In this document: piece by piece, positions 9,671 through 16,911 of the stretch
Layout: every line of letters starts with the position of its first letter
Numbering within the stretch: the stretch's first letter is position 1
From: a virus
Lineage: Duplodnaviria; Heunggongvirae; Uroviricota; Caudoviricetes
DNA: 16,911 bases
Virus record (IMG/VR): IMGVR_UViG_2872164251_000008
Reading direction: 5' to 3' (one strand)
Notes under the pieces: model-generated
What the model saw: only the letters and a program-made list of their open reading frames with translations
What the model was told of the DNA's origin: nothing
Database searches by the model: none
Program-made: the position numbers and the translations under genes

Positions 9671-9825
9671 AAAAAAGTCCTGGGGTTAAGTAAGGAACTC
9701 CAGGACGCGGCAAACACTCAACCGTTTTTCATAAGGAAATCAGTAATCGCACCGATCGTTTTCCCGCCTGGTAATGAATATTGGCGAGCACATTAACAGG
9801 CGGGAAAGTGGCCCCAGCGTCCTGG
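9671..9825 (-). promoter_or_regulatory. capsid operon 5' leader with terminator/antiterminator-like alternative pairing and a 17-bp-arm inverted repeat
   Basis: On the mRNA, GCGUCCUGG (9708-9700) can pair either with an upstream CCAGGACGC (9825-9817, 9 bp) or with the downstream CCAGGAC (9683-9677, 7 bp). The downstream arm contains the capsid Shine-Dalgarno and is followed by U6 directly before the AUG. A separate inverted repeat TTTCCCGCCTGGTAATG / CATTAACAGGCGGGAAA spans 9760-9807. Confidence 0.4.
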
Positions 9826-9861
9826 CACCACGGGCGAGAATAATCATGATTCAGTTCGGGT

Positions 9862-9930
9862 AAAATATGCCGATCCGCTCAGTGAACAACGTGGAACAAC
9901 CACGAACAAATAATTTACAAAAAATAACAA
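9862..9930 (-). promoter_or_regulatory. candidate capsid-operon promoter (-35 TTGTTC, 16-bp spacer, -10 TATTTT on minus strand) overlapping five phased TTGTTC-type repeats (9884, 9894, 9904, plus degenerate 9915, 9925)
   Basis: Direct reading. The promoter hexamers are weak matches and are not verified. Confidence 0.35.
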
Positions 9931-9950
9931 AAAGCCGGATTGCTCCGGCT
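9920..9950 (-). terminator. rho-independent terminator (AGCCGGA-GCAA-UCCGGCU then UUUUUGUUAUUUUUU)
   Basis: Perfect 7-bp GC-rich stem, 4-nt loop, U-rich tail on the minus strand. Confidence 0.65.
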
Positions 9951-9969
9951 GTATGTGCTGTATGGGTGC

Positions 9970-10194
9970 TCAGTCTCTGATCCCTTTCAGAAATTCTATC
10001 AATGCATCTGTCTGTTCAGGATTTACTGCCAGCATTTCACCGGATAGCGCGCAACGAACAAAACCATGATGATCCTTTTCAATCAGCGCCCCCGTTTCCA
10101 GAAATGCGCGGTAATCAGTGATATTCATCGTCTCCATGTTGTCAGCATGGTATTTATCACGCTGTTTAAGTATCTCATCAAATTTCATCGGCAT
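9970..10194 (-). CDS. hypothetical protein (74 aa from MPMKFDEILK…), bracketed by two identical terminators
   Basis: ORF track 9970..10272. The internal ATG at 10194 has a GAGGA Shine-Dalgarno at 7 nt, whereas the first ATG abuts the terminator U-tract. Confidence 0.5.
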   Translation of the reverse strand: MPMKFDEILKQRDKYHADNMETMNITDYRAFLETGALIEKDHHGFVRCALSGEMLAVNPEQTDALIEFLKGIRD

Positions 10195-10285
10195 TGCGTT
10201 TTCCTCTGTTGTGTCTGTTTGTTTCAGATAGTAACTATGCCGGACCGTGACGAAAAGCCAGTAGTGCTCCATACCGTTTCAAATG

Positions 10286-10313
10286 ACGCAAAAAAAGCCG
10301 GATTGCTCCGGCT
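10286..10313 (-). terminator. rho-independent terminator, hairpin identical to the one at 9933-9950, followed by UUUUUUU
   Basis: Same 18-nt hairpin AGCCGGAGCAATCCGGCT followed by a T7 run on the minus strand. Confidence 0.65.
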
Positions 10314-10326
10314 TCGTGGTGTGGTT

Positions 10327-10497
10327 CTGATATTCCTACTCTGCTAATTTGCTCAGCCCCATGTCTGCGTAAGTGCGATTTACTGCATTTCTCAGGTCTG
10401 CGTAGTTCTCCGTTGGCGGCTCCGGTGTGCCCTTGCTGCTCTGTTTTACCAGCGGGTCGCCCACCAGCCGCCCGTAAGCTGCAATTTGTGCTGTCAT
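10327..10497 (-). CDS. hypothetical small protein (56 aa), not in the supplied ORF track
   Basis: Open frame found by hand: MTAQIAAYGRLVGDPLVKQSSKGTPEPPTENYADLRNAVNRTYADMGLSKLAE. ATG at 10495-10497 preceded by GAGGTGG. Fills the gap between the 101-aa ORF and the terminator. Confidence 0.35.
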
Positions 10498-10506
10498 ATT
10501 GCCACC

Positions 10507-10812
10507 TCAGTGAAGCGATCCGGCATTGTTCTTTTTCATCTCTTCCATCATTTTTTCAGTGAGCATTACGCACTGAAACCCCATGTTTTTGATGTCTACG
10601 GGTTTCATGCCTTTGTCAGTGGATATCACAGGCAGAATATCCTGATACACATCGCGGTCAGGGTAACTAAGCACACAAAGCGCCCATGATGCCACGGGTG
10701 AGGATCCTTCGTCTGTTTCAACCCACCAGCCTGGTGTAGCTGCGCTTATTTGCAGAATCGTGATCCGTCCGTTGTGCTTGTAAAATTTTTCACCAAATTT
10801 TGGTTCGCTCAT
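10507..10812 (-). CDS. hypothetical protein (101 aa)
   Basis: ORF track. ATGA start/stop overlap with the upstream ORF. GGAGAGG Shine-Dalgarno. Confidence 0.5.
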   Translation of the reverse strand: MSEPKFGEKFYKHNGRITILQISAATPGWWVETDEGSSPVASWALCVLSYPDRDVYQDILPVISTDKGMKPVDIKNMGFQCVMLTEKMMEEMKKNNAGSLH

Positions 10813-11087
10813 GATTCCACCTCTCCGGTTTTAACGTTGATTGTTGTTACCTGTTCCGCTTCGGCAATCTCCCGCTCTGTCAGCGTGGCAAAATTTGCCG
10901 CCGTCGTGGTCATGAATGCGCTTATCAGTTCGGGATGTGCTTTCGCGTATCCTTCCCCCGCGTGGCGGTCTATCGTTCTGATTGCCACCTTTAAAGCGTG
11001 CTCTGTCATGTCTAACGCGCGATATTTCGGTTCTGTTCTGTCTCTGCGTTTTTTGAGTGATTTATTAAATTTCCCTGAAGTGTGCAT
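10809..11087 (-). CDS. hypothetical protein (92 aa)
   Basis: ORF track. GAGGGGG Shine-Dalgarno upstream of ATG at 11087. Confidence 0.5.
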   Translation of the reverse strand: MHTSGKFNKSLKKRRDRTEPKYRALDMTEHALKVAIRTIDRHAGEGYAKAHPELISAFMTTTAANFATLTEREIAEAEQVTTINVKTGEVES

Positions 11088-11366: not shown

Positions 11367-13115
11367 TTATAAAAACGCGTCGCACTCGTCTGTTGTTATT
11401 GCGTTAGTCTGCGTTACTCCCTTAACTTTCCGCGTAATATATTCATGTCCGTAAACTTTCGCGGCTGGCTTCATAGCCTTGCCAAAGTCATTTACGTTTA
11501 GCGGTTTGCTCCTGCCTGCGTACGCCATAAACGCCAGATAGACGCGGTAAAGGCTGTTTCTGGTCGTGTACTTCACTGAATCGCCACCGCCGCCCATCAT
11601 CAGGCCGCGTGCTTCCTCCAGAAAATTCAGGAACTGGCAAAACTCAATAACCGGATCCGTCTGTTGCTTTATTGCCAGAGCTTCATCACCGTCACGCTGT
11701 TCCAGTAGTAAAGCCCGTGCTTTCTCAGAGTCGGTAAAGTTCGCCAGCAATCGGCGGATAATGACAGGGATTTCAGCCGCAATCTTTTCCGGTAGCTCCC
11801 TGTCTTTTTCGGCCTCACTAACGATATTGTCGAAACGGAAAATCACGCGACGACGTGCCACACCTCCGGCCCGTTCGGTGAATATCATCGGGTTATTGTT
11901 GGTCGCCAGCACCACCGCCCTGATTACAGCCGTGAAACGCTTTTCGTATTTCGGGTTAATTTCCACGGGGTCACCGCCCGTGATTTTCTTGATGCCCGTT
12001 CCTTCGCCTGTATATTTCGGCTGGTCAGCCAGGACGATAAGACGACTCCCGACAACCTGCGGACGTCCACCAGCATCATCAAGCGATGTCATTTCAGCGC
12101 TTACCGTGTTCTGTTTCCCTGCCAGAAGGCTGGCTATGTGTGTGAATGTACTTTTACCGCTCCCGCCGTCTCCGGTGGCCTCAATAAACATCTGCCAGTC
12201 GTACCGGTTCGCCATAATCATGTACAGCGCGGCACATATACGCATCATCTTGCGCTGGTCTTTTCCGGCTGCGTGCTCAAGCCATTTATGAAAGTTTAGC
12301 GCGTTATCGCGGATGTTCTCCCCTGGTGCTGGTGGCGTGTACTCAATGCCGTTGTGCGTGGTGATCCAGTTCTCCGGCGTGTGCGGGGAAAATTCCCCCG
12401 TTTTCAGGTCAAGCGCACCATTGGCGAACGGCAGCAAATCGCCGGACGGCTCGCCCATTGGTTCGGCAATAACTTTTAACGCTTCCACGGCGTTATTGAT
12501 TACGCGCTTGCTGAAAGTGGCCCTGTGCTCTGAATAGATCGCCACCATTTCGCGGCTAAGTTCCATTGTGCTGACCGGACACCATACCCCGCCGCGCCAT
12601 ACGTGAACGATTTCACTTTCCTGATGCACACAAACGCCATCAAAGCGCTCGGCAAGCAGCTGCGCGCGCTCACTGTCTGCCATTTGTGCCAGTTGCGTAT
12701 TTTTCTGCTCCGGCATGGTAAGCCCTGCGGCAATATTTTCACGCTCAGCATTCAGATAGCGCCGCCAGTTTTCACACTTCTGGACGTGCATTCCTTCGGG
12801 GTAAAAATTTGCGTCCTGAATATCTGCCGCCGCCAGCTTCTGACCAATCTTTTTGGTCTCCACCAAATCCAGTTCTCCGGCCTGGTACAGCCTTACGCGT
12901 TTTTTTCCATCCGGAACAATTTTCAGTGCATCAAGTTCGGCAAGCTGATTTGGCCCAAGCCACACAGGCGGCACATTATCGCCGGATGCGGGGCCATCCT
13001 GCTCCTGCCATTGTTTCGCGTGCGACCAGGCATCACTACCCGCAAAGATAATTACCTCTGTGTCTTTGTGTTTTATTCCGCGTGGCTGTTTTTTTACGTT
13101 CGGTGCCAGTTTCAT
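11367..13115 (-). CDS. replication protein: primase/helicase-type P-loop NTPase (P4 alpha / D5-like C-terminal region)
   Basis: ORF track 11367..13115 (582 aa). Walker A motif GDGGSGKST. Overall layout typical of satellite/plasmid primase-helicase proteins. ATGA overlap with upstream ORF. Confidence 0.8.
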   Translation of the reverse strand: MKLAPNVKKQPRGIKHKDTEVIIFAGSDAWSHAKQWQEQDGPASGDNVPPVWLGPNQLAELDALKIVPDGKKRVRLYQAGELDLVETKKIGQKLAAADIQDANFYPEGMHVQKCENWRRYLNAERENIAAGLTMPEQKNTQLAQMADSERAQLLAERFDGVCVHQESEIVHVWRGGVWCPVSTMELSREMVAIYSEHRATFSKRVINNAVEALKVIAEPMGEPSGDLLPFANGALDLKTGEFSPHTPENWITTHNGIEYTPPAPGENIRDNALNFHKWLEHAAGKDQRKMMRICAALYMIMANRYDWQMFIEATGDGGSGKSTFTHIASLLAGKQNTVSAEMTSLDDAGGRPQVVGSRLIVLADQPKYTGEGTGIKKITGGDPVEINPKYEKRFTAVIRAVVLATNNNPMIFTERAGGVARRRVIFRFDNIVSEAEKDRELPEKIAAEIPVIIRRLLANFTDSEKARALLLEQRDGDEALAIKQQTDPVIEFCQFLNFLEEARGLMMGGGGDSVKYTTRNSLYRVYLAFMAYAGRSKPLNVNDFGKAMKPAAKVYGHEYITRKVKGVTQTNAITTDECDAFL

Positions 13116-13719: not shown

Positions 13720-13872
13720 TCAGTACATCAAGCCCGTTGATTTATATTCTCTCGTGGAAAGTAAGAAAAAAGCCGCTCTAATAAGTTCTGGCATTGACGA
13801 AAGCGCATCAGCCGCATCATCAGGAACGCCGGAAAATTCCTGTTTCAGGGAATTAAAACGATCATCACGCAT
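13720..13872 (-). CDS. hypothetical protein (about 50 aa from MRDDRFNSLK…)
   Basis: ORF track 13720..13920. The ATG at 13870-13872 overlaps the upstream stop (ATGCGTGA), suggesting that start. Confidence 0.4.
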   Translation of the reverse strand: MRDDRFNSLKQEFSGVPDDAADALSSMPELIRAAFFLLSTREYKSTGLMY

Positions 13873-14086
13873 AACCCCCCCCATTTTCACAATCGGCAAC
13901 AAGAATATTTTTAGCGTCATTCAGTGACCGCGTTGCGATGTATCGGATACATTCCAGGGCGAACTGTGTCCGGTCTTTCTGTTCTTCTCCCTGCGCAAGC
14001 TCTGCCGTGCATTCAATATCAATAAGCGCGTGCATCAGCGTAGTGAGTGCGGCGGCTGCTGCGTTCGGTGTGGTTTTATTGTGCAT
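13865..14086 (-). CDS. hypothetical protein (73 aa from MHNKTTPNAAAA…), first gene of the replication-side operon
   Basis: ORF track 13865..14128. Internal ATG at 14084-14086 has an AGGGGGAAA Shine-Dalgarno. Confidence 0.45.
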   Translation of the reverse strand: MHNKTTPNAAAAALTTLMHALIDIECTAELAQGEEQKDRTQFALECIRYIATRSLNDAKNILVADCENGGGYA

Positions 14087-14357
14087 AGGTTTCCCCCTGA
14101 CGAATACGGGCGGCGAATACAGCAACACAACCGGACGGGCAACGGCTACGCGCTTCGCGTTCCGTCCAAGCGGTTACGTGGATGATTTGGGATTCTCCGG
14201 TACTCAGTGCCAGAAAACGCCACACAAAGGCCGTTTGTGTGTGTACAAGGTGTGGTATATGATTTACGGCAACCATAACGGCTCCTAGTTTACGTTGTTG
14301 GTTAGAAGCCCCGTTACTGCTCCTACAGTGCGGGGCTTTGCTTTTTGTGTTGATTGT

Positions 14358-14403
14358 GTGTAATGTGTCATTACACATAAATACATTACATGAGGTGTAA
14401 TTA
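14358..14403. promoter_or_regulatory. operator-like array of TGTAAT/ATTACA half-sites (GTGTAATG-TGT-CATTACAC, then CATTACA…TGTAATT) overlapping the RHH gene promoter/RBS region
   Basis: Direct reading. Perfect 8-bp inverted repeat at 14358-14376 plus two further half-sites to 14403. Confidence 0.4.
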
Positions 14404-14405
14404 AC

Positions 14406-14585
14406 GTGTCAACACACAAAAACGAAAGGCGTGGTAATCCTCCGTTCCAGTTCCGTTTAGATCCTGACTTACGGGAAAAGATGGAAAAGGCACAACAACA
14501 GGACGGCGATGATTCTCTTGCTGCCTGGATAAAGCGAATAATCCGCAAAGAATTACAGCAACGCGGCATAGAACCCAAAGGATAA
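14406..14585 (+). CDS. Arc/MetJ-type ribbon-helix-helix DNA-binding protein (59 aa, GTG start), candidate island repressor
   Basis: Found by hand, not in the ORF track. GAGGTG Shine-Dalgarno at 14391-14396. Translation …PPFQFRLDPDLREKMEKAQQQDGDDSLAAWIKRIIRKELQQRG has the Arc-like beta-strand/helix/helix layout. Followed by a + strand terminator. Confidence 0.6.
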   Translation: MSTHKNERRGNPPFQFRLDPDLREKMEKAQQQDGDDSLAAWIKRIIRKELQQRGIEPKG

Positions 14586-14642
14586 AAACTATCAGCGCCG
14601 TGGTGTGAGGTACTACGGCGCATTGCTTTACAGGCGCACACA

Positions 14643-14819
14643 ATGACCAACGAAGAATCAACCGAAAAAACATCACCTGCACGAAAAAGACGACGCAGAA
14701 AGAAAGAGCATGAATCAGAACGATTCGCGCCGTGTTCTTTTGCCCTTGAGAAGTACCTTAAAGAATACTCATCAAAGGAGAGAACTTCGCAGTTATGGCA
14801 ACGCACTGAACCAGACTGA
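14643..14819 (+). CDS. possible small basic protein (58 aa) downstream of the RHH gene
   Basis: Open frame MTNEESTEKTSPARKRRRRKKEH… in the same transcription unit. No clear Shine-Dalgarno. Coding status uncertain. Confidence 0.2.
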   Translation: MTNEESTEKTSPARKRRRRKKEHESERFAPCSFALEKYLKEYSSKERTSQLWQRTEPD

Positions 14820-14914
14820 TTGCATTGCCCACCAGCCTGATAGCGGCTATCATCCCCGTGCTTATGTTTGGGATCACACACACAAACGGCGCAGCGGGTT
14901 ATCTGTTCAGAAAG

Positions 14915-14942
14915 GCGGCTCCATTTCGGGGCCGCTTTTTTT
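14915..14942 (+). terminator. rho-independent terminator for the + strand RHH unit (8-bp stem GCGGCUCC/GGGGCCGC with one G-U pair, 5-nt loop, T7 tail)
   Basis: Direct reading. Confidence 0.6.
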
Positions 14943-15088
14943 ATGCCTGAAAAACCCCAATTTTGTGGTTTTCCAGTTTCACCAGGGCGAACGAATCCCC
15001 GCCCACGTTCTGGCGTATATTCAATCTTCATGGTTATAGCTCTGTGTTCAGATGATTGATGTGTGGCGGCTGCGTGCCGCCAGCGTGA

Positions 15089-15277
15089 TTAATGAACTGC
15101 CTTGCAGCTATCCTTCCAGGCCAGAACCTCGGATAAAGACCAGCCAACGGAACGACCGCCAAGTTTACGACGTGATGGGAATTGTCCGGCCTTTTCCAGG
15201 CGGTAGCGGCATGAGCGGCTAAGGCCTGTTAGCTTTTCGCATTCTTTTTCACGTATAAACCGATCAGTGCTTAACAC
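15089..15277 (-). CDS. alpA: AlpA/Vis-family phage transcriptional regulator (excisionase-like HTH), GTG start
   Basis: ORF track 15089..15277. Pattern …IREKECEKLTGLSRSCRYRLEKAGQFPSRRKLGGRSVGWSLSEVLAW… is characteristic of AlpA/Vis proteins. AGGGGG Shine-Dalgarno. Confidence 0.85.
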   Translation of the reverse strand: MLSTDRFIREKECEKLTGLSRSCRYRLEKAGQFPSRRKLGGRSVGWSLSEVLAWKDSCKAVH

Positions 15278-15328
15278 TATTGCCCCCTTTCGTTTCTTAA
15301 AGAGTTATTTCGTGTTCTATTGCGTTGG

Positions 15329-15357
15329 GATGTGTCTGATTGTGTCAGGATGATTCA
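15329..15357 (-). promoter_or_regulatory. candidate alpA promoter (-35 TTGCCA, 17-bp spacer, -10 CACAAT) with two GACACA direct repeats phased 10 bp apart over the -10 and start region
   Basis: Direct reading of the minus strand. Not verified. Confidence 0.35.
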
Positions 15358-15437
15358 GAGTTGGCAAATGTTGAGGCCGTATGGTTTACAGAAAGAGGAA
15401 TAATCAGGATAAAATCATTTAAATTCATGTTAATACA

Positions 15438-15468
15438 AAGGCATAAAATATTGTTTCATGCCTTTTTT
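15438..15468. terminator. terminator-like hairpin (AAGGCAT / ATGCCTT stem, 13-nt loop) with a T-run on the + strand; possible int terminator or end of an unannotated small transcript
   Basis: Direct reading. No ORF upstream on the + strand. Confidence 0.3.
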
Positions 15469-15560
15469 CTCGCTATTTAAAGAGTGATTCGCTAGTGTAT
15501 AAAAAACCAGTAAGACGTTAAAAATCAGCTACTTATAAATCTGTACACTTTTTCACCTCT

Positions 15561-15640
15561 TGTTCGTAGTTGTTCCGCATTGTTGCTCATTGTTGCTCAT
15601 TGTTGCTCATTGTTGCTCATTGTTGCACGTTGTATCTGTT
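15561..15640. repeat. eight tandem 10-bp units starting TGTT(C/G), including four perfect TGTTGCTCAT copies (15581-15620), between the int stop and alpA
   Basis: Direct reading. Exact 10-bp phasing. Confidence 0.85.
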
Positions 15641-15681
15641 CGCATATCCAGTATGCGCATACTGAAAAAACACGAAAAAAA

Positions 15682-16911
15682 TTATTTTCTTCTGGCTACT
15701 GGTAGCGTGGTTACGTTTTCATGTGTTCCCGCCAGTATCCCTAACCGCTCCGTCCACATATCCAGCGCATTGCGTTTAGCATCCAGATAACGGGAATGAT
15801 TATAAACTCGCTGCATTCCTGGCATCTGGTGGCCTGTAAGCTGCTCCACGACGTGAGGATCCACGCCTAAATCGTTCAGCATCGTTGTAAAGGTGCGCCG
15901 GATGTCATGTAGTGACCAGTGAGGGTGATTTAGCCTCCTGTGCGCTAATCTGCCGTACTGCGACACGCTTGTTTCCTGTTTCACTTCCCCCAGCAATAAG
16001 CCCGTGTGCCTGTTCTGCTCCACCAGCTGCGTGACGAACGGCAGTATTGCTTCCGGTATGGGCCGGAATATTGCCACCTTCGTTTTGCTGTGTTCTTTCG
16101 GCACGGTCCAGAGCATTTCGGTAAAATCCCACTCGCTGATCTCCGATAACCTCAGTTCTACCGTCCGGCATCCGAACACAATCAGGAGGCGGATTAACGC
16201 GATGTAGTAGGGGGAGAATATTTTTTTGTCCAGTGCCTGCAATAATTCGCCCAGTTCTTTGGTGCTTAAGACACGCTCGCTTATATCCGGTTTTTTCCCA
16301 ACGTCCGCCACACTCATATCATCAAGAACGTTGCTGATTGCATAGCGCCGCCTCCGGCAGAACTTAAGCGCCTGTTTGCACGTCTGTAGCAAGAATCCGG
16401 CAGTAACAGGCGTTCGCTTTGCCACCTGGTCAAAACAGGCCAGCCAGTGCCGTAGCTCGCATTTATCCAGCGGCATAGCACCAATGTGCTGTATTACGTG
16501 ATTATTAAGGCGCTTTTTCAGGGCGGCATAATCCACGCGGTTTTCCTTTGCGTACGACTCAAGCCAGTAGGTGAGCGCATCGCCAACCGTTACCGGCTTT
16601 AACGCTTCCTGTACGGTGTAATTAAGCTCATGACGTGGATTTTTCCCCTCTGCCAGCCATGCGCGACACTGGGCGGCTTTTTCCCTGGCTGATTTCAGGC
16701 TCAGATCAGGATAATTTCCCAGCTTAATGCGTTCCGGTGGTGCCCCCCTTCCCGTTCCGGCCCTGTAAGTGAAATACCAGGTTAAAAGGCCACTGGTTGA
16801 ATGCCTGACGCTCAGGTTTCCACCGTCATTAAGAAAGGCTGTTTTTTGGGCGGGTGTGCCGTTGATTTTCCTCAGCTGTGTATCGCTCAGTTTGTTAAGT
16901 GCTCTGCTCAT
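15682..16911 (-). CDS. int: tyrosine site-specific integrase, P4-type (N-terminal arm-binding domain plus catalytic domain); ATG is the last three bases of the window
   Basis: ORF track 15682..16911 (409 aa). Catalytic pattern …HDIRRTF… and …GHQMPGMQRVYNHSRY. N-terminal region resembles P4-family integrases. Confidence 0.92.
   Translation of the reverse strand: MSRALNKLSDTQLRKINGTPAQKTAFLNDGGNLSVRHSTSGLLTWYFTYRAGTGRGAPPERIKLGNYPDLSLKSAREKAAQCRAWLAEGKNPRHELNYTVQEALKPVTVGDALTYWLESYAKENRVDYAALKKRLNNHVIQHIGAMPLDKCELRHWLACFDQVAKRTPVTAGFLLQTCKQALKFCRRRRYAISNVLDDMSVADVGKKPDISERVLSTKELGELLQALDKKIFSPYYIALIRLLIVFGCRTVELRLSEISEWDFTEMLWTVPKEHSKTKVAIFRPIPEAILPFVTQLVEQNRHTGLLLGEVKQETSVSQYGRLAHRRLNHPHWSLHDIRRTFTTMLNDLGVDPHVVEQLTGHQMPGMQRVYNHSRYLDAKRNALDMWTERLGILAGTHENVTTLPVARRK

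Follow-up and report, generated by a model that had tools for sequence, protein, structure and literature searches.

The window, meaning the whole stretch of DNA analysed (16,911 nt), adjoins phoQ and carries int and alpA, together with Pfam matches to TerL, TerS, HNH, portal, S78 protease, HK97-type capsid and D5-type primase. Possession of int, alpA and a primase alongside its own capsid, protease, portal, HNH, TerS and TerL genes, without tail genes, agrees with the family description in 10.1101/2022.09.08.507074, and on this gene content the window is a capsid-forming phage-inducible chromosomal island (cf-PICI). The alpA gene is the known activator gene of such islands (PMC6092414). The gene order int, alpA, a ribbon-helix-helix (RHH) gene on the opposite strand, and then icd-like through to primase is found in the window and in most related loci. 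The features between the icd-like gene and alpA are as follows.

14076–14276, minus strand: icd-like gene, 66 aa (ATG 14276, stop 14076); NF033153, E 1e-17; phrog_29966/1743
14235–14263, plus strand: predicted promoter P_as of the antisense RNA; −35 TTGTGT (14235–14240), 17 nt spacer, −10 TATGAT (14258–14263)
14271–14347, plus strand: predicted cis-antisense RNA of about 76 nt; stem-loop SL1 14271–14303, terminator hairpin SL2 14305–14339, U-tract to 14347
14338–14366, plus strand: predicted promoter P_R of the RHH gene; −35 TTGCTT (14338–14343), 17 nt spacer, −10 TAATGT (14361–14366)
14357–14377: candidate operator O1, TGTGTAATG-N3-CATTACACA, overlapping ATGTGT-N4-ACACAT (14363–14378)
14383–14412, minus strand: predicted promoter P_L toward icd-like and primase; TTGACA (14412–14407), 18 nt spacer, TAATGT (14388–14383)
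14386–14402: candidate operator O2, ATTACA-N5-TGTAAT
14406–14585, plus strand: gene for a 59-aa RHH (Arc-like) protein; GTG start, Shine-Dalgarno GAGG (14392–14395)
14595–14621, plus strand: conserved hairpin of 11–12 bp directly 3' of the RHH stop; −19.3 kcal/mol, z −3.77
14643–14819, plus strand: second gene, 58 aa; phrog_21027, E 2.9e-12; basic N-terminus and invariant ESERFAPCxFxLE core
14909–14943, plus strand: intrinsic terminator of the rightward unit, convergent with alpA; stem 14909–14941
14285–15031, minus strand: bridge ORF, 248 codons from its ATG; frame open from the alpA stop at 15089
15089–15277, minus strand: alpA, 62 aa, upstream of the bridge ORF on the same strand; PF05930, E 5e-18; phrog_2790

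A 59-aa plus-strand ORF with a GTG start had been proposed in the earlier note and is confirmed at 14406–14585. Its reading frame is conserved in relatives, as the note's proposal demanded, being kept in 117 protein clusters from Enterobacterales, Orbales, Pasteurellales and Aeromonadales. Third-position changes were synonymous in the plus frame only 1604 times, against 24 that were synonymous only in the antisense frame. On this pattern of substitution the ORF is a real gene under purifying selection.

The RHH fold, on which the same note had staked its proposal, was recovered by profile search and fold comparison. PHROG 228 ("Arc-like repressor") matches the 59-aa protein with E 2.1e-6, as it does 34 of 36 family members, and the fold resembles solved RHH structures, with Arc among the structural matches. 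The protein is laid out as strand-helix-turn-helix over about 45 residues, helix B being capped by a G-x-S/T/N turn; in the aligned family this takes the form of an FQFRLDP strand, a helix, a D-G-D-x-S turn and a second helix. The AF2 monomer has a mean pLDDT of 78, rising above 90 in helices 20–33 and 38–52, and a disordered N-terminus. Pfam searches of the protein and its family members returned nothing significant (RHH_7 at 0.033 in one member, HicB at 0.054), a PDB sequence search with the protein had no match, and its NCBIfam matches were all below the cut-offs, so that the clear assignment came only from PHROGs and fold comparison. The 59-aa product is a ribbon-helix-helix, Arc-like DNA-binding protein. 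The C-terminal helix is constant, while at least five classes of the N-terminal, DNA-reading strand can be told apart across 80 related loci. Strand sequence and palindromes change together, which lends indirect support to a dimer whose antiparallel two-stranded sheet would read the major groove of a palindromic or repeated operator. The conserved C-terminal helix and its RGIEPKG tail could, as speculation, be a contact surface.

P_R and P_L would be opposed σ70 promoters, of which P_L is near-consensus. The −35 of P_R lies inside the T-tract of the antisense RNA terminator and its start is predicted at about 14373; 62 of 68 unique loci, drawn from every class, have the pattern TTGnnn-17/18-TAnnnT in the same place. 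P_L, with a predicted start at about 14376, has a −35 that overlaps codons 1–3 of the RHH gene. This box is present as TGTCAA at +1 to +6 of the RHH start in 74 of 82 loci, irrespective of class, and TAnnnT stands at a spacer of 16–18 in 65 of 68 unique loci. The TAATGT −10 of each promoter matches only 3 of 6 consensus positions, and neither hexamer was reported by a simple promoter scan.

The inverted repeat GTGTAATG-N3-CATTACAC that had been noted upstream of the gene is present at 14358–14376 and extends to 9-bp arms (O1). Two further half-sites had also been noted; these are ATTACA (14386–14391) and TGTAAT (14397–14402), which together make a second palindrome (O2). O1 covers the −10 and predicted start of P_R, plus the predicted start region of P_L, and O2 takes in the −10 and spacer of P_L as well as the RHH gene's Shine-Dalgarno. 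A lone 8-bp palindrome is weak evidence by itself. These repeats rise above chance because they recur at the same two positions in 80 loci and change with the N-terminal strand. In all classes the palindromes lie about 45 and about 15 nt before the RHH start, with class-specific palindromes at the O1 position throughout the 80 loci. They are of the GTGTAAT type in class A, AAGTGT..ACACTT and GTGTCAGACAC in class B and ATGGTAATTACCAT in class C; the loci with a DQYQIRL-type strand have TGTAATTACA, and the individual loci L082 and L085 have GGTATATACC and GTACCTATT..AATAGGTAC. The O2 palindrome persists in most class A loci, and classes B and C have different palindromes in its place.

The E. 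coli SHP24 locus (L001) has flanks close to those of the window, yet carries a class C N-terminal half with class C operators. To judge from this exchange, the operators and the N-terminal half of the protein move together as one cassette, and class-matched palindromes at the same two positions are, on sequence comparison, the signature of a repressor with its operators. Which of the overlapping palindromes is bound is uncertain, because the Shigella locus L003 has an identical RHH protein and one mismatch in the long palindrome.

Since the candidate operators overlap the −10 sequences and starts of both promoters, the bound RHH protein would repress P_L, holding the island quiescent, and would limit its own synthesis. 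Repression of the replication operon by this protein thus appears well placed. The "master repressor" role put forward in the earlier note draws on predicted operators that overlap a conserved leftward promoter, and is best taken as a suggestion. In EcCICFT073, deletion of alpA abolishes induction and over-expression of AlpA alone induces the island (PMC6092414). AlpA is therefore necessary and, when over-expressed, sufficient, which would make the RHH protein one layer of control and not the sole master switch.

The same arrangement would serve a copy-number controller of the CopG/CopB type, which would damp the replication genes mainly after induction or entry into a fresh cell and would not silence the integrated island. 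Operator and promoter geometry would be identical, the target operon encodes a primase, and the known trigger is AlpA, not loss of a repressor (PMC6092414). The pairing with an antisense RNA also recalls pMV158 CopG/RNAII and R1 CopB/CopA (PMC4485353, PMC5717011). Against this, the RHH gene is divergent with its own promoter, whereas copG and copB are co-transcribed with the replication genes (PMC5717011), and swappable specificity cassettes are more typical of immunity regions. A copy-number role in place of quiescence is considered unlikely; the two roles are compatible with each other and are not mutually exclusive.

The icd-like gene, with a ribosome-binding site (AGGAG) 5 nt before its ATG, is the first gene of the leftward operon, of which the primase is the last (11367–13115; domains D5_N, DUF5906 and Pox_D5). 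It is the predicted target of both the RHH protein and the antisense RNA. The RNA is complementary to the icd-like ATG (14276–14274), Shine-Dalgarno (14286–14282) and leader, and SL1 carries an anti-Shine-Dalgarno. Its fold has a free energy of −30.4 kcal/mol (z −4.25). An alignment of 64 sequences has pairing in 94.8% of cells and, over its two helices, compensatory change in 13 of 19 pairs, a level reached by 0 of 500 shuffles. The hairpins are more stable when folded as the plus strand in 60 of 67 cases, with a mean difference of −4.15 kcal/mol, and G-U pairs make sense on the plus strand alone. A covariance model, with hits on the plus strand only, matches loci outside its training set, including EcCICFT073 (E 5e-11), and also finds Pasteurella Pmp8 and others (E 1e-10 to 1e-18). 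In Rfam, neither C4, CI, IsrK nor any other family was found in the whole window at gathering thresholds or in 13800–15700 at E<=10, the best matches being terminator look-alikes. As a second layer of control, the antisense RNA would block icd-like translation through its anti-Shine-Dalgarno stem-loop.

The −10 of P_as lies within icd-like codons 5–7. The −35 is weak and not conserved, which, together with a terminator that abuts the −35 of P_R and the want of an Rfam family match, would suit a different function, in which the hairpin and T-tract are an insulating terminator for the RHH promoter or an attenuator within a longer RHH leader from P_as. In 60 of 63 unique loci, however, a TAnnnT hexamer precedes the complement of the first leftward gene's ATG by exactly 10 nt; 16 of 19 N-terminal protein clusters, which include several unrelated proteins, retain this offset. 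A covarying SL1 that presents an anti-Shine-Dalgarno is also hard to account for by insulation alone, and the attenuator version would yield the same short RNA anyway. Insulation or attenuation is accordingly held to be improbable, and a cis-antisense RNA is the preferred interpretation.

The RHH gene had been described as the only convincing plus-strand gene, which does not hold. The ORF at 14643–14819 is also convincing, on its phrog_21027 match and conserved core; its indels are multiples of three. Its 24 protein clusters all come from Escherichia/Shigella and it is absent from many related loci, such as those in Xenorhabdus. It is probably co-transcribed with the RHH gene. Hairpins like that at 14595–14621 follow the small regulator gene in L001, L002 (twice) and EcCICFT073, and this hairpin is possibly a partial terminator or a transcript-stabilising element. 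The plus-strand terminator convergent with alpA that was noted earlier stands up well: seven T come after a stem of −21.7 kcal/mol (z −3.96), and the minus-strand reading is weaker, at −12.3 kcal/mol; a simple terminator scan did not list it. A further plus-strand ORF at 14710–15039 (109 aa) is not credible, as it crosses the terminator and has no family match.

Two small genes in tandem, the first encoding a DNA-binding protein, recall a type II toxin-antitoxin pair in which the RHH protein would be the antitoxin, the 58-aa ORF the toxin and the palindromes autoregulatory only. A weak VapB match (E 0.012), a HicB match in 4 of 36 members and the JGI label "HicB family" on some RHH family members point the same way. 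This reading is rejected as very unlikely because the partner ORF is restricted to Escherichia/Shigella and matches no toxin family; the RHH gene is far more widespread and often partnerless. In Xenorhabdus, moreover, alpA follows the RHH gene within 100 nt, and the conserved TTGACA promoter faces the replication operon.

The bridge ORF runs antisense through both plus-strand genes, both candidate operators and the hairpin, and its stop codon (TAG, 14287–14285) overlaps the icd-like Shine-Dalgarno. Of 76 unique loci, 60 keep this frame free of stops across the RHH gene and 56 across the 117-nt control region, whereas the other five frames are open in 0–16 of 76. Among synonymous codons, those that would place a stop in the bridge frame were observed 18 times where 61 were expected. 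The ORF is interrupted in about one fifth of loci and its amino-acid sequence is not conserved; no family match to the product was found in Pfam, NCBIfam or PHROGs. It was therefore rejected as a conserved protein gene and kept as an open frame under selection, since a frame that stays open without sequence constraint suggests that translation as such is favoured, not a functional protein. Continuation of the alpA frame into the bridge ORF is seen only in the window, L002 and L003 and not in other loci. The EcCICFT073 equivalent has 428 codons and is in frame with Icd-like. That the long minus-strand ORF is the real gene and the 59-aa ORF merely its shadow is scarcely credible, for although it is open in most loci and PGAP calls the E. 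coli SHP24 equivalent a partial Icd-like pseudogene and omits the plus-strand gene, amino-acid conservation follows the plus frame (1604 against 24), the plus-strand product is backed by a match to an RHH profile, by a helical model of high confidence and by conservation of its start, and the minus-strand product has no family match and is wholly changed upon cassette swap.

A third and more tentative layer of control may involve this frame. On induction, transcription reading through from the alpA promoter would pass over the region on the minus strand along the open ORF, which ends at the icd-like ribosome site or, in other islands, runs in frame into icd-like. Such transcription would get past both blocks and would also interfere with the repressor gene, which is convergent. 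Selection for openness only would mean that ribosomes could ride through, silence the repressor gene and reach the icd-like start, which they would do despite the antisense RNA. The read-through is possibly antiterminated. The AlpA of P. aeruginosa is a processive antiterminator (PMC7969949, PMC9371919), and the alpA of the window belongs to the same Pfam family, PF05930. Antitermination would explain how alpA transcription crosses the hairpins and the convergent unit to icd-like. For the AlpA of EcCICFT073 the only described action is activation of its own promoter and of ORF3 (PMC6092414), and antitermination by a PICI AlpA is, unlike that in P. aeruginosa, hypothetical.

The RHH protein would thus be the specificity component of a control switch between alpA and the icd-like/primase operon. 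The switch model as a whole, with an RHH repressor on P_L, an antisense RNA and tentative alpA read-through, is given a probability of about 0.6. The wider proposal, that a three-layer immunity switch of exchangeable RHH cassette, cis-antisense RNA and AlpA-driven bridge read-through operates in Gram-negative PICIs and has been overlooked because its parts are small, is put forward tentatively and is the less probable of the two.

Among the closest parallels to this arrangement is the immI region of phage P22, where the RHH repressors Mnt and Arc act with the promoters Pant and Pmnt and the sar antisense RNA. The immI genes are named in PMC2629481. The likeness lies in small RHH repressors at closely apposed, opposed promoters and in a short cis-antisense RNA aimed at the repressed unit's first gene, at its ribosome site. 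At the present locus, however, there is one RHH gene and not two, with sequence similarity at the profile level only; there is no antirepressor gene, the repressed operon running from icd-like to primase; and the element that hosts it is a satellite and not a phage, with only 4 hits in 50,697 phage records, at least one of which is a satellite-like 15-kb element. The c4 and CI RNAs share a coding strand with their targets and work by means of short complementary loops. The regions that encode them, P1/P7 immI (c4, icd, ant) and the CI region of P4, resemble this locus in that an icd-type leader gene heads an operon and is under the control of a small RNA of about 77 nt, but the RNA predicted here is encoded opposite its target and has no Rfam C4 match.

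Stl of the SaPI islands is inactivated by binding a helper-phage protein, and is not known to be an RHH protein. Stl and the Rpr of Gram-positive PICIs are alike in position, as the regulator lies between int and the replication module and is transcribed away from it (PMC6092414). The RHH protein would likewise keep the island quiescent; the Gram-negative islands, unlike these, additionally need AlpA. Pairing of a repressor with an antisense RNA over rep genes is established in plasmids pMV158 and R1 (PMC4485353, PMC5717011). The present repressor gene differs from those in being divergent, with its own promoter, and not co-transcribed with rep. The element is also integrated and helper-induced, and the proposed AlpA read-through layer is absent from the plasmids.

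The prototype island, EcCICFT073, shares this layout and carries another cassette. There, and in E. coli RM10466, the slot of the RHH gene is occupied by a member of the YlcI/YnfO family (NF041551; Pfam DUF3950), flanked by the same terminator hairpin and by the same downstream hairpin and 58-aa ORF. The leftward promoter at the place equivalent to P_L is TTGACG-18-TATAGT, on which YlcI/YnfO has its own repeats, two copies of GTGGGCCACACC in EcCICFT073. These loci differ in having a longer intergenic region without the TGTCAA box at the start codon. YlcI/YnfO shows weak profile similarity to the 59-aa protein (E 5.1e-4), and DUF3950 matches 8 of 36 members. The 59-aa protein is not itself assigned to YlcI/YnfO, scoring 20 bits against a cut-off of 30 and giving no BLASTP alignment with the EcCICFT073 protein.

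In the founding paper on Gram-negative PICIs it is unclear if any global repressor exists and the contrast with Gram-positive islands is called a "mystery" (PMC6092414). A literature search of limited coverage found no account of either a repressor or an antisense RNA for the PICIs or cf-PICIs of Gram-negative bacteria. What would be new is the repressor role on replication genes for a small RHH gene in Gram-negative satellites; the control logic is already known. The window island and, in variant form, EcCICFT073 both have a conserved divergent small regulator, with candidate operators on a near-consensus promoter toward the replication operon and a conserved predicted antisense RNA beside it. 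If its function were confirmed, the arrangement would supply the missing quiescence control and would show by what mechanism AlpA leads to expression of the replication genes. It would also account for how related islands that share a cell could avoid cross-talk, because the specificity cassettes are exchangeable. For annotation, the lesson is that the small gene is often left out or replaced by a spurious antisense pseudogene.

A further palindrome, CACACAAA-N5-TTTGTGTG at 14221–14241, had been placed in the divergent region by the earlier note. The repeat exists at that position, but it is within the icd-like coding sequence and not in divergent intergenic DNA. Among the loci examined it is seen only in L001, L002 and L003, which share the icd-like allele of the window, and as an allele-specific repeat within a coding sequence it was rejected as an operator.

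The window is a capsid-forming phage-inducible chromosomal island of the type described in 10.1101/2022.09.08.507074. It shares its phoQ-side site with the prototype island EcCICFT073, and phoQ is at the left end of the window. The minus strand left of alpA carries the HK97-type capsid, S78 protease, portal, HNH, TerS and TerL genes, together with the primase, small ORFs and a DUF4222 protein. Among the public records retrieved, the closest is Shigella flexneri CP182556.1, in which ten of the twelve proteins compared are 100% identical and two are 98–99% identical. An IS1 transposase gene (2642-3145, minus strand) is located between TerL and phoQ at the left island end.

Features of the island referred to in the text
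11367-13115, minus strand, D5-type primase
14076-14276, minus strand, icd-like gene (NF033153, E 1e-17)
14258-14263, plus strand, TATGAT, -10 of the predicted antisense-RNA promoter P_as, start near 14271
14285-15031, minus strand, bridge ORF of 248 codons
TTGCTT 14338-14343 and TAATGT 14361-14366, plus strand, predicted promoter P_R of the RHH gene, start near 14373
TTGACA 14412-14407, 18 nt, TAATGT 14388-14383, minus strand, predicted leftward promoter P_L, start near 14376
14406-14585, plus strand, gene for a 59-aa Arc-like ribbon-helix-helix (RHH) protein, GTG start
14643-14819, plus strand, second small gene, 58 aa (phrog_21027, E 3e-12)
15089-15277, minus strand, alpA, AlpA family (PF05930, E 5e-18)
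15682-16911, minus strand, tyrosine integrase at the window end

The 59-aa ORF put forward in the earlier note is present. Homologues of its product form 117 clusters of 50–98% identity, from Escherichia, Shigella, Klebsiella, Serratia, Pantoea, Yersinia, Proteus, Xenorhabdus, Gilliamella, Frischella, Pasteurella, Mannheimia and Oceanisphaera. In most E. coli genomes PGAP labels the product hypothetical; in one relative PGAP calls the antisense stretch an Icd-like pseudogene and leaves the small gene out. Because a 248-codon ORF occupies the opposite strand, the coding strand needed testing. The plus and minus frames have third codon positions in common, and among 32 class A sequences (the class of the window) 1604 third-position differences are synonymous in the plus frame only, versus 24 in the minus frame only. 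The plus frame is therefore the one under selection for its protein, and it is kept across the 117 clusters; by this comparison the gene is real.

Searches of Pfam and of PDB sequences returned nothing significant for the 59-aa protein, and the NCBIfam matches, to YlcI/YnfO and VapB, are both sub-threshold. The PHROGs profile phrog_228, "Arc-like repressor", is matched at E 2.1e-6, and by 34 of the 36 family members. Membership of YlcI/YnfO was rejected by score, and a toxin-antitoxin pair reading was also rejected.

The inverted repeat noted earlier upstream of the gene is found at 14358-14376, with arms that extend to 9 bp over 14357-14377 (putative operator O1). The two further half-sites, also present, together make a second palindrome, ATTACA-N5-TGTAAT, at 14386-14402 (putative operator O2). 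In the 80 related loci retrieved for comparison, the C-terminal helix WIKRIIRKEL..RGIEPKG is almost invariant and the N-terminal strand falls into classes, with class-specific palindromes at two shared positions, approximately 45 and 15 nt 5' of the start codon. Class A (PPFQFRL) has GTGTAAT-type palindromes, class B (KQIALRV) has AAGTGT..ACACTT and GTGTCAGACAC, and class C (PQYQMRL or PPFQMRL) has two copies of ATGGTAATTACCAT. The DQYQIRL type has two copies of TGTAATTACA and the PQFPMRL type has GGTATATACC; a PAFQIRI type is also found (L085). E. coli SHP24 matches the window closely on either flank, but from ~14348 to ~14535 its operators and the N-terminal half of its protein are of class C. 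The operators and recognition strand therefore move as a single cassette, as would be predicted for a repressor with its own operators. In the Shigella locus the protein is identical, yet CACTAC replaces CATTAC, and the true core of O1 may therefore be an overlapping, more widely conserved palindrome, ATGTGT-N4-ACACAT (14363-14378).

Some islands have two switch modules or tandem RHH genes (L002 3170-4240, L025 3769-4168, L033 upstream of 3995). In E. coli RM10466 a class A module comes after a YlcI/YnfO module, and the Citrobacter locus L025 has a class B gene 58 nt 5' of its class A gene. Such pairs may represent double immunity or recombination intermediates.

Three sigma-70-type promoters, P_L, P_R and P_as, were predicted solely from conservation. 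In 74 of 82 loci, across all classes, the first base of the start codon is directly followed by TGTCAA (minus strand TTGACA), and TAnnnT is present at a spacer of 16–18 from this P_L motif in 65 of 68 unique loci. For P_R, TTGnnn within the T-tract of the upstream terminator is followed after 17–18 nt by TAnnnT (62/68 unique loci). Putative O1 spans the P_R -10 and start, plus the P_L start region; putative O2 spans the P_L -10 and spacer, plus the RHH ribosome site. The polymerase footprints at these predicted promoters overlap, therefore P_L and P_R should exclude each other. In EcCICFT073 a YlcI/YnfO-family gene occupies the RHH slot, TTGACG-18-TATAGT faces icd-like, and GTGGGCCACACC occurs twice, in the promoter spacer and over the -10 and start. 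That this layout recurs with another cassette suggests that it serves to repress the leftward promoter. At the predicted P_L start, an ATG (14376-14378, minus strand) in the icd-like frame would extend icd-like to 100 codons, and a leaderless long form from this codon is possible.

Between the icd-like start and P_R is a hairpin, 14305-14339, followed by TTTGCTTTTT; the hairpin recurs in nearly all loci, and in each class. A second, smaller stem-loop has an anti-Shine-Dalgarno CCUC in its loop. Over 64 aligned sequences the two stem-loops are 94.8% paired, with compensatory changes at 13 of 19 pairs; none of 500 shuffles equalled the real pairing and shifted registers reached at most 54%. Many of the plus strand pairs are G-U, the counterpart of C-A on the minus strand, and 60 of 67 unique hairpins fold more stably as plus strand RNA, with a mean gain of 4.15 kcal/mol. 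This places the predicted RNA on the rightward strand, ending at an intrinsic terminator. There is no rightward gene upstream of the hairpin. In 60 of 63 unique loci a TAnnnT precedes the ATG complement of the first leftward gene by exactly 10 nt, and in the remaining 3 by 4 nt. The offset is kept in 16 of 19 N-terminal sequence clusters, several unrelated proteins among them, and is therefore no by-product of the codons of one protein. The RNA predicted from P_as, of ~76 nt (-30.4 kcal/mol, z -4.25), would be fully complementary to the icd-like ATG, Shine-Dalgarno and leader.

A covariance model made from this alignment finds a single copy in the window. Its matches beyond the training set, in EcCICFT073 (E 5e-11), E. 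coli SHP24, Pasteurella Pmp8, the first RM10466 module and two further loci, are all on the predicted strand. No Rfam family matches the antisense RNA, and on this basis a C4-type identity was rejected. In a 106-kb record labelled phage (Klebsiella phage P12620-1, PQ569648.1) the element (86 bits) is found with an RHH homologue at 2811-3141; every gene annotated there is on the other strand, and the small gene is thus missed once more.

The amino-acid sequence of the bridge ORF, between alpA and icd-like, is not conserved, but its frame is unusually open. Of 76 unique loci, 60 keep it open across the RHH gene and 56 across the 117-nt control region, against 0–16 for the remaining five frames. 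RHH synonymous codons that would make bridge-frame stops number 18, versus 61 expected; in twelve control contexts the ratio to expectation was 0.66 to 1.64. In the window it is open from the alpA stop codon to a TAG overlapping the icd-like Shine-Dalgarno, and in ~30 loci it is continuous with the frame of the first leftward gene. The EcCICFT073 equivalent, a 428-codon ORF (9767-11053, plus strand of that record) starting 53 nt 3' of alpA, is antisense to both small genes and then runs in frame into Icd-like. It is probably "ORF3" of PMC6092414, for which a lacZ fusion was AlpA-dependent. Gene callers and PGAP sometimes annotate the bridge ORF, displacing the small genes. AlpA of P. aeruginosa is a processive antiterminator (PMC7969949, PMC9371919), which makes read-through from the island alpA promoter plausible. 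Such transcripts would traverse the region under translation, shielded from polarity, bring ribosomes to the icd-like start despite masking by the antisense RNA, and disturb the convergent repressor unit.

In the quiescent island, RHH protein on O1 and O2 would most likely shut P_L and restrain its own synthesis, and the antisense RNA would stop any icd-like message that leaks through from being translated. A naive cell that the island enters would have neither, and P_L could fire briefly; PMC5717011 describes comparable transient firing for the R1 and pMV158 rep genes on entering a new host. On helper induction AlpA would go up, and read-through from its promoter would circumvent both blocks. 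Comparison supports the reality of the gene, its fold, the covariation of operators with the recognition strand, the structure and strand of the RNA, and the conservation of the promoter motifs; we infer binding, repression, RNA function and read-through. Similar logic is seen in P22 immI (Arc and Mnt with sar RNA), in copy control of pMV158 (CopG and RNAII) and R1 (CopB and CopA) (PMC4485353, PMC5717011), and in P1 immI (c4 RNA and icd); SaPI Stl is alike by position.

The components are of familiar kinds, unlike their combination and setting. In the literature searched, neither the RHH switch nor the antisense RNA nor the bridge ORF is described. The paper 10.1101/2022.09.08.507074 makes no mention of a repressor, and a 2026 survey counts satellite YlcI/YnfO and "HicB" solely among accessory genes. 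Of 5,426 complete E. coli genomes, 174 carry the class A cassette and 727 carry parts of the module. Among 50,697 phage records the 59-aa protein has 4 matches, at least one of them a 15-kb satellite-like element.

The RHH gene had been considered the only convincing plus strand gene of the island; the 58-aa ORF is a second credible one. Its ESERFAPCxFxLE core is invariant in 24 clusters, from Escherichia and Shigella only. It has a basic N-terminus (RKRRRRK) and is also found 3' of the YlcI/YnfO gene in EcCICFT073. The plus strand terminator recognised earlier is confirmed (-21.7 kcal/mol, z -3.96, then seven T). Just upstream of it are a perfect palindrome, TGATAGC-G-GCTATCA (14838-14852), and a promoter-like TTGCCC-17-TATCAT at 14825-14853. 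The stretch 14820-15090 is near-identical in the window, SHP24 and L002, with flanks that differ by ~10%, and EcCICFT073 diverges across it; a separate plus strand RNA of ~80 nt from this stretch is possible.

Directly 3' of the RHH stop is a strong hairpin (14595-14621); several islands, EcCICFT073 among them, keep it 3' of their small regulator gene. On the minus strand UGAUAGUUUUUAUCC comes next, so the hairpin could attenuate transcription in either direction. The palindrome at 14221-14241, earlier placed in the divergent region, is instead within the icd-like coding sequence, codons 12-19. A terminator scan finds it terminator-like on the minus strand, and the predicted P_as -35 coincides with its right arm. 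It could be a translation-dependent attenuator. Among the loci examined, it is present only in those with the icd-like allele of the window.
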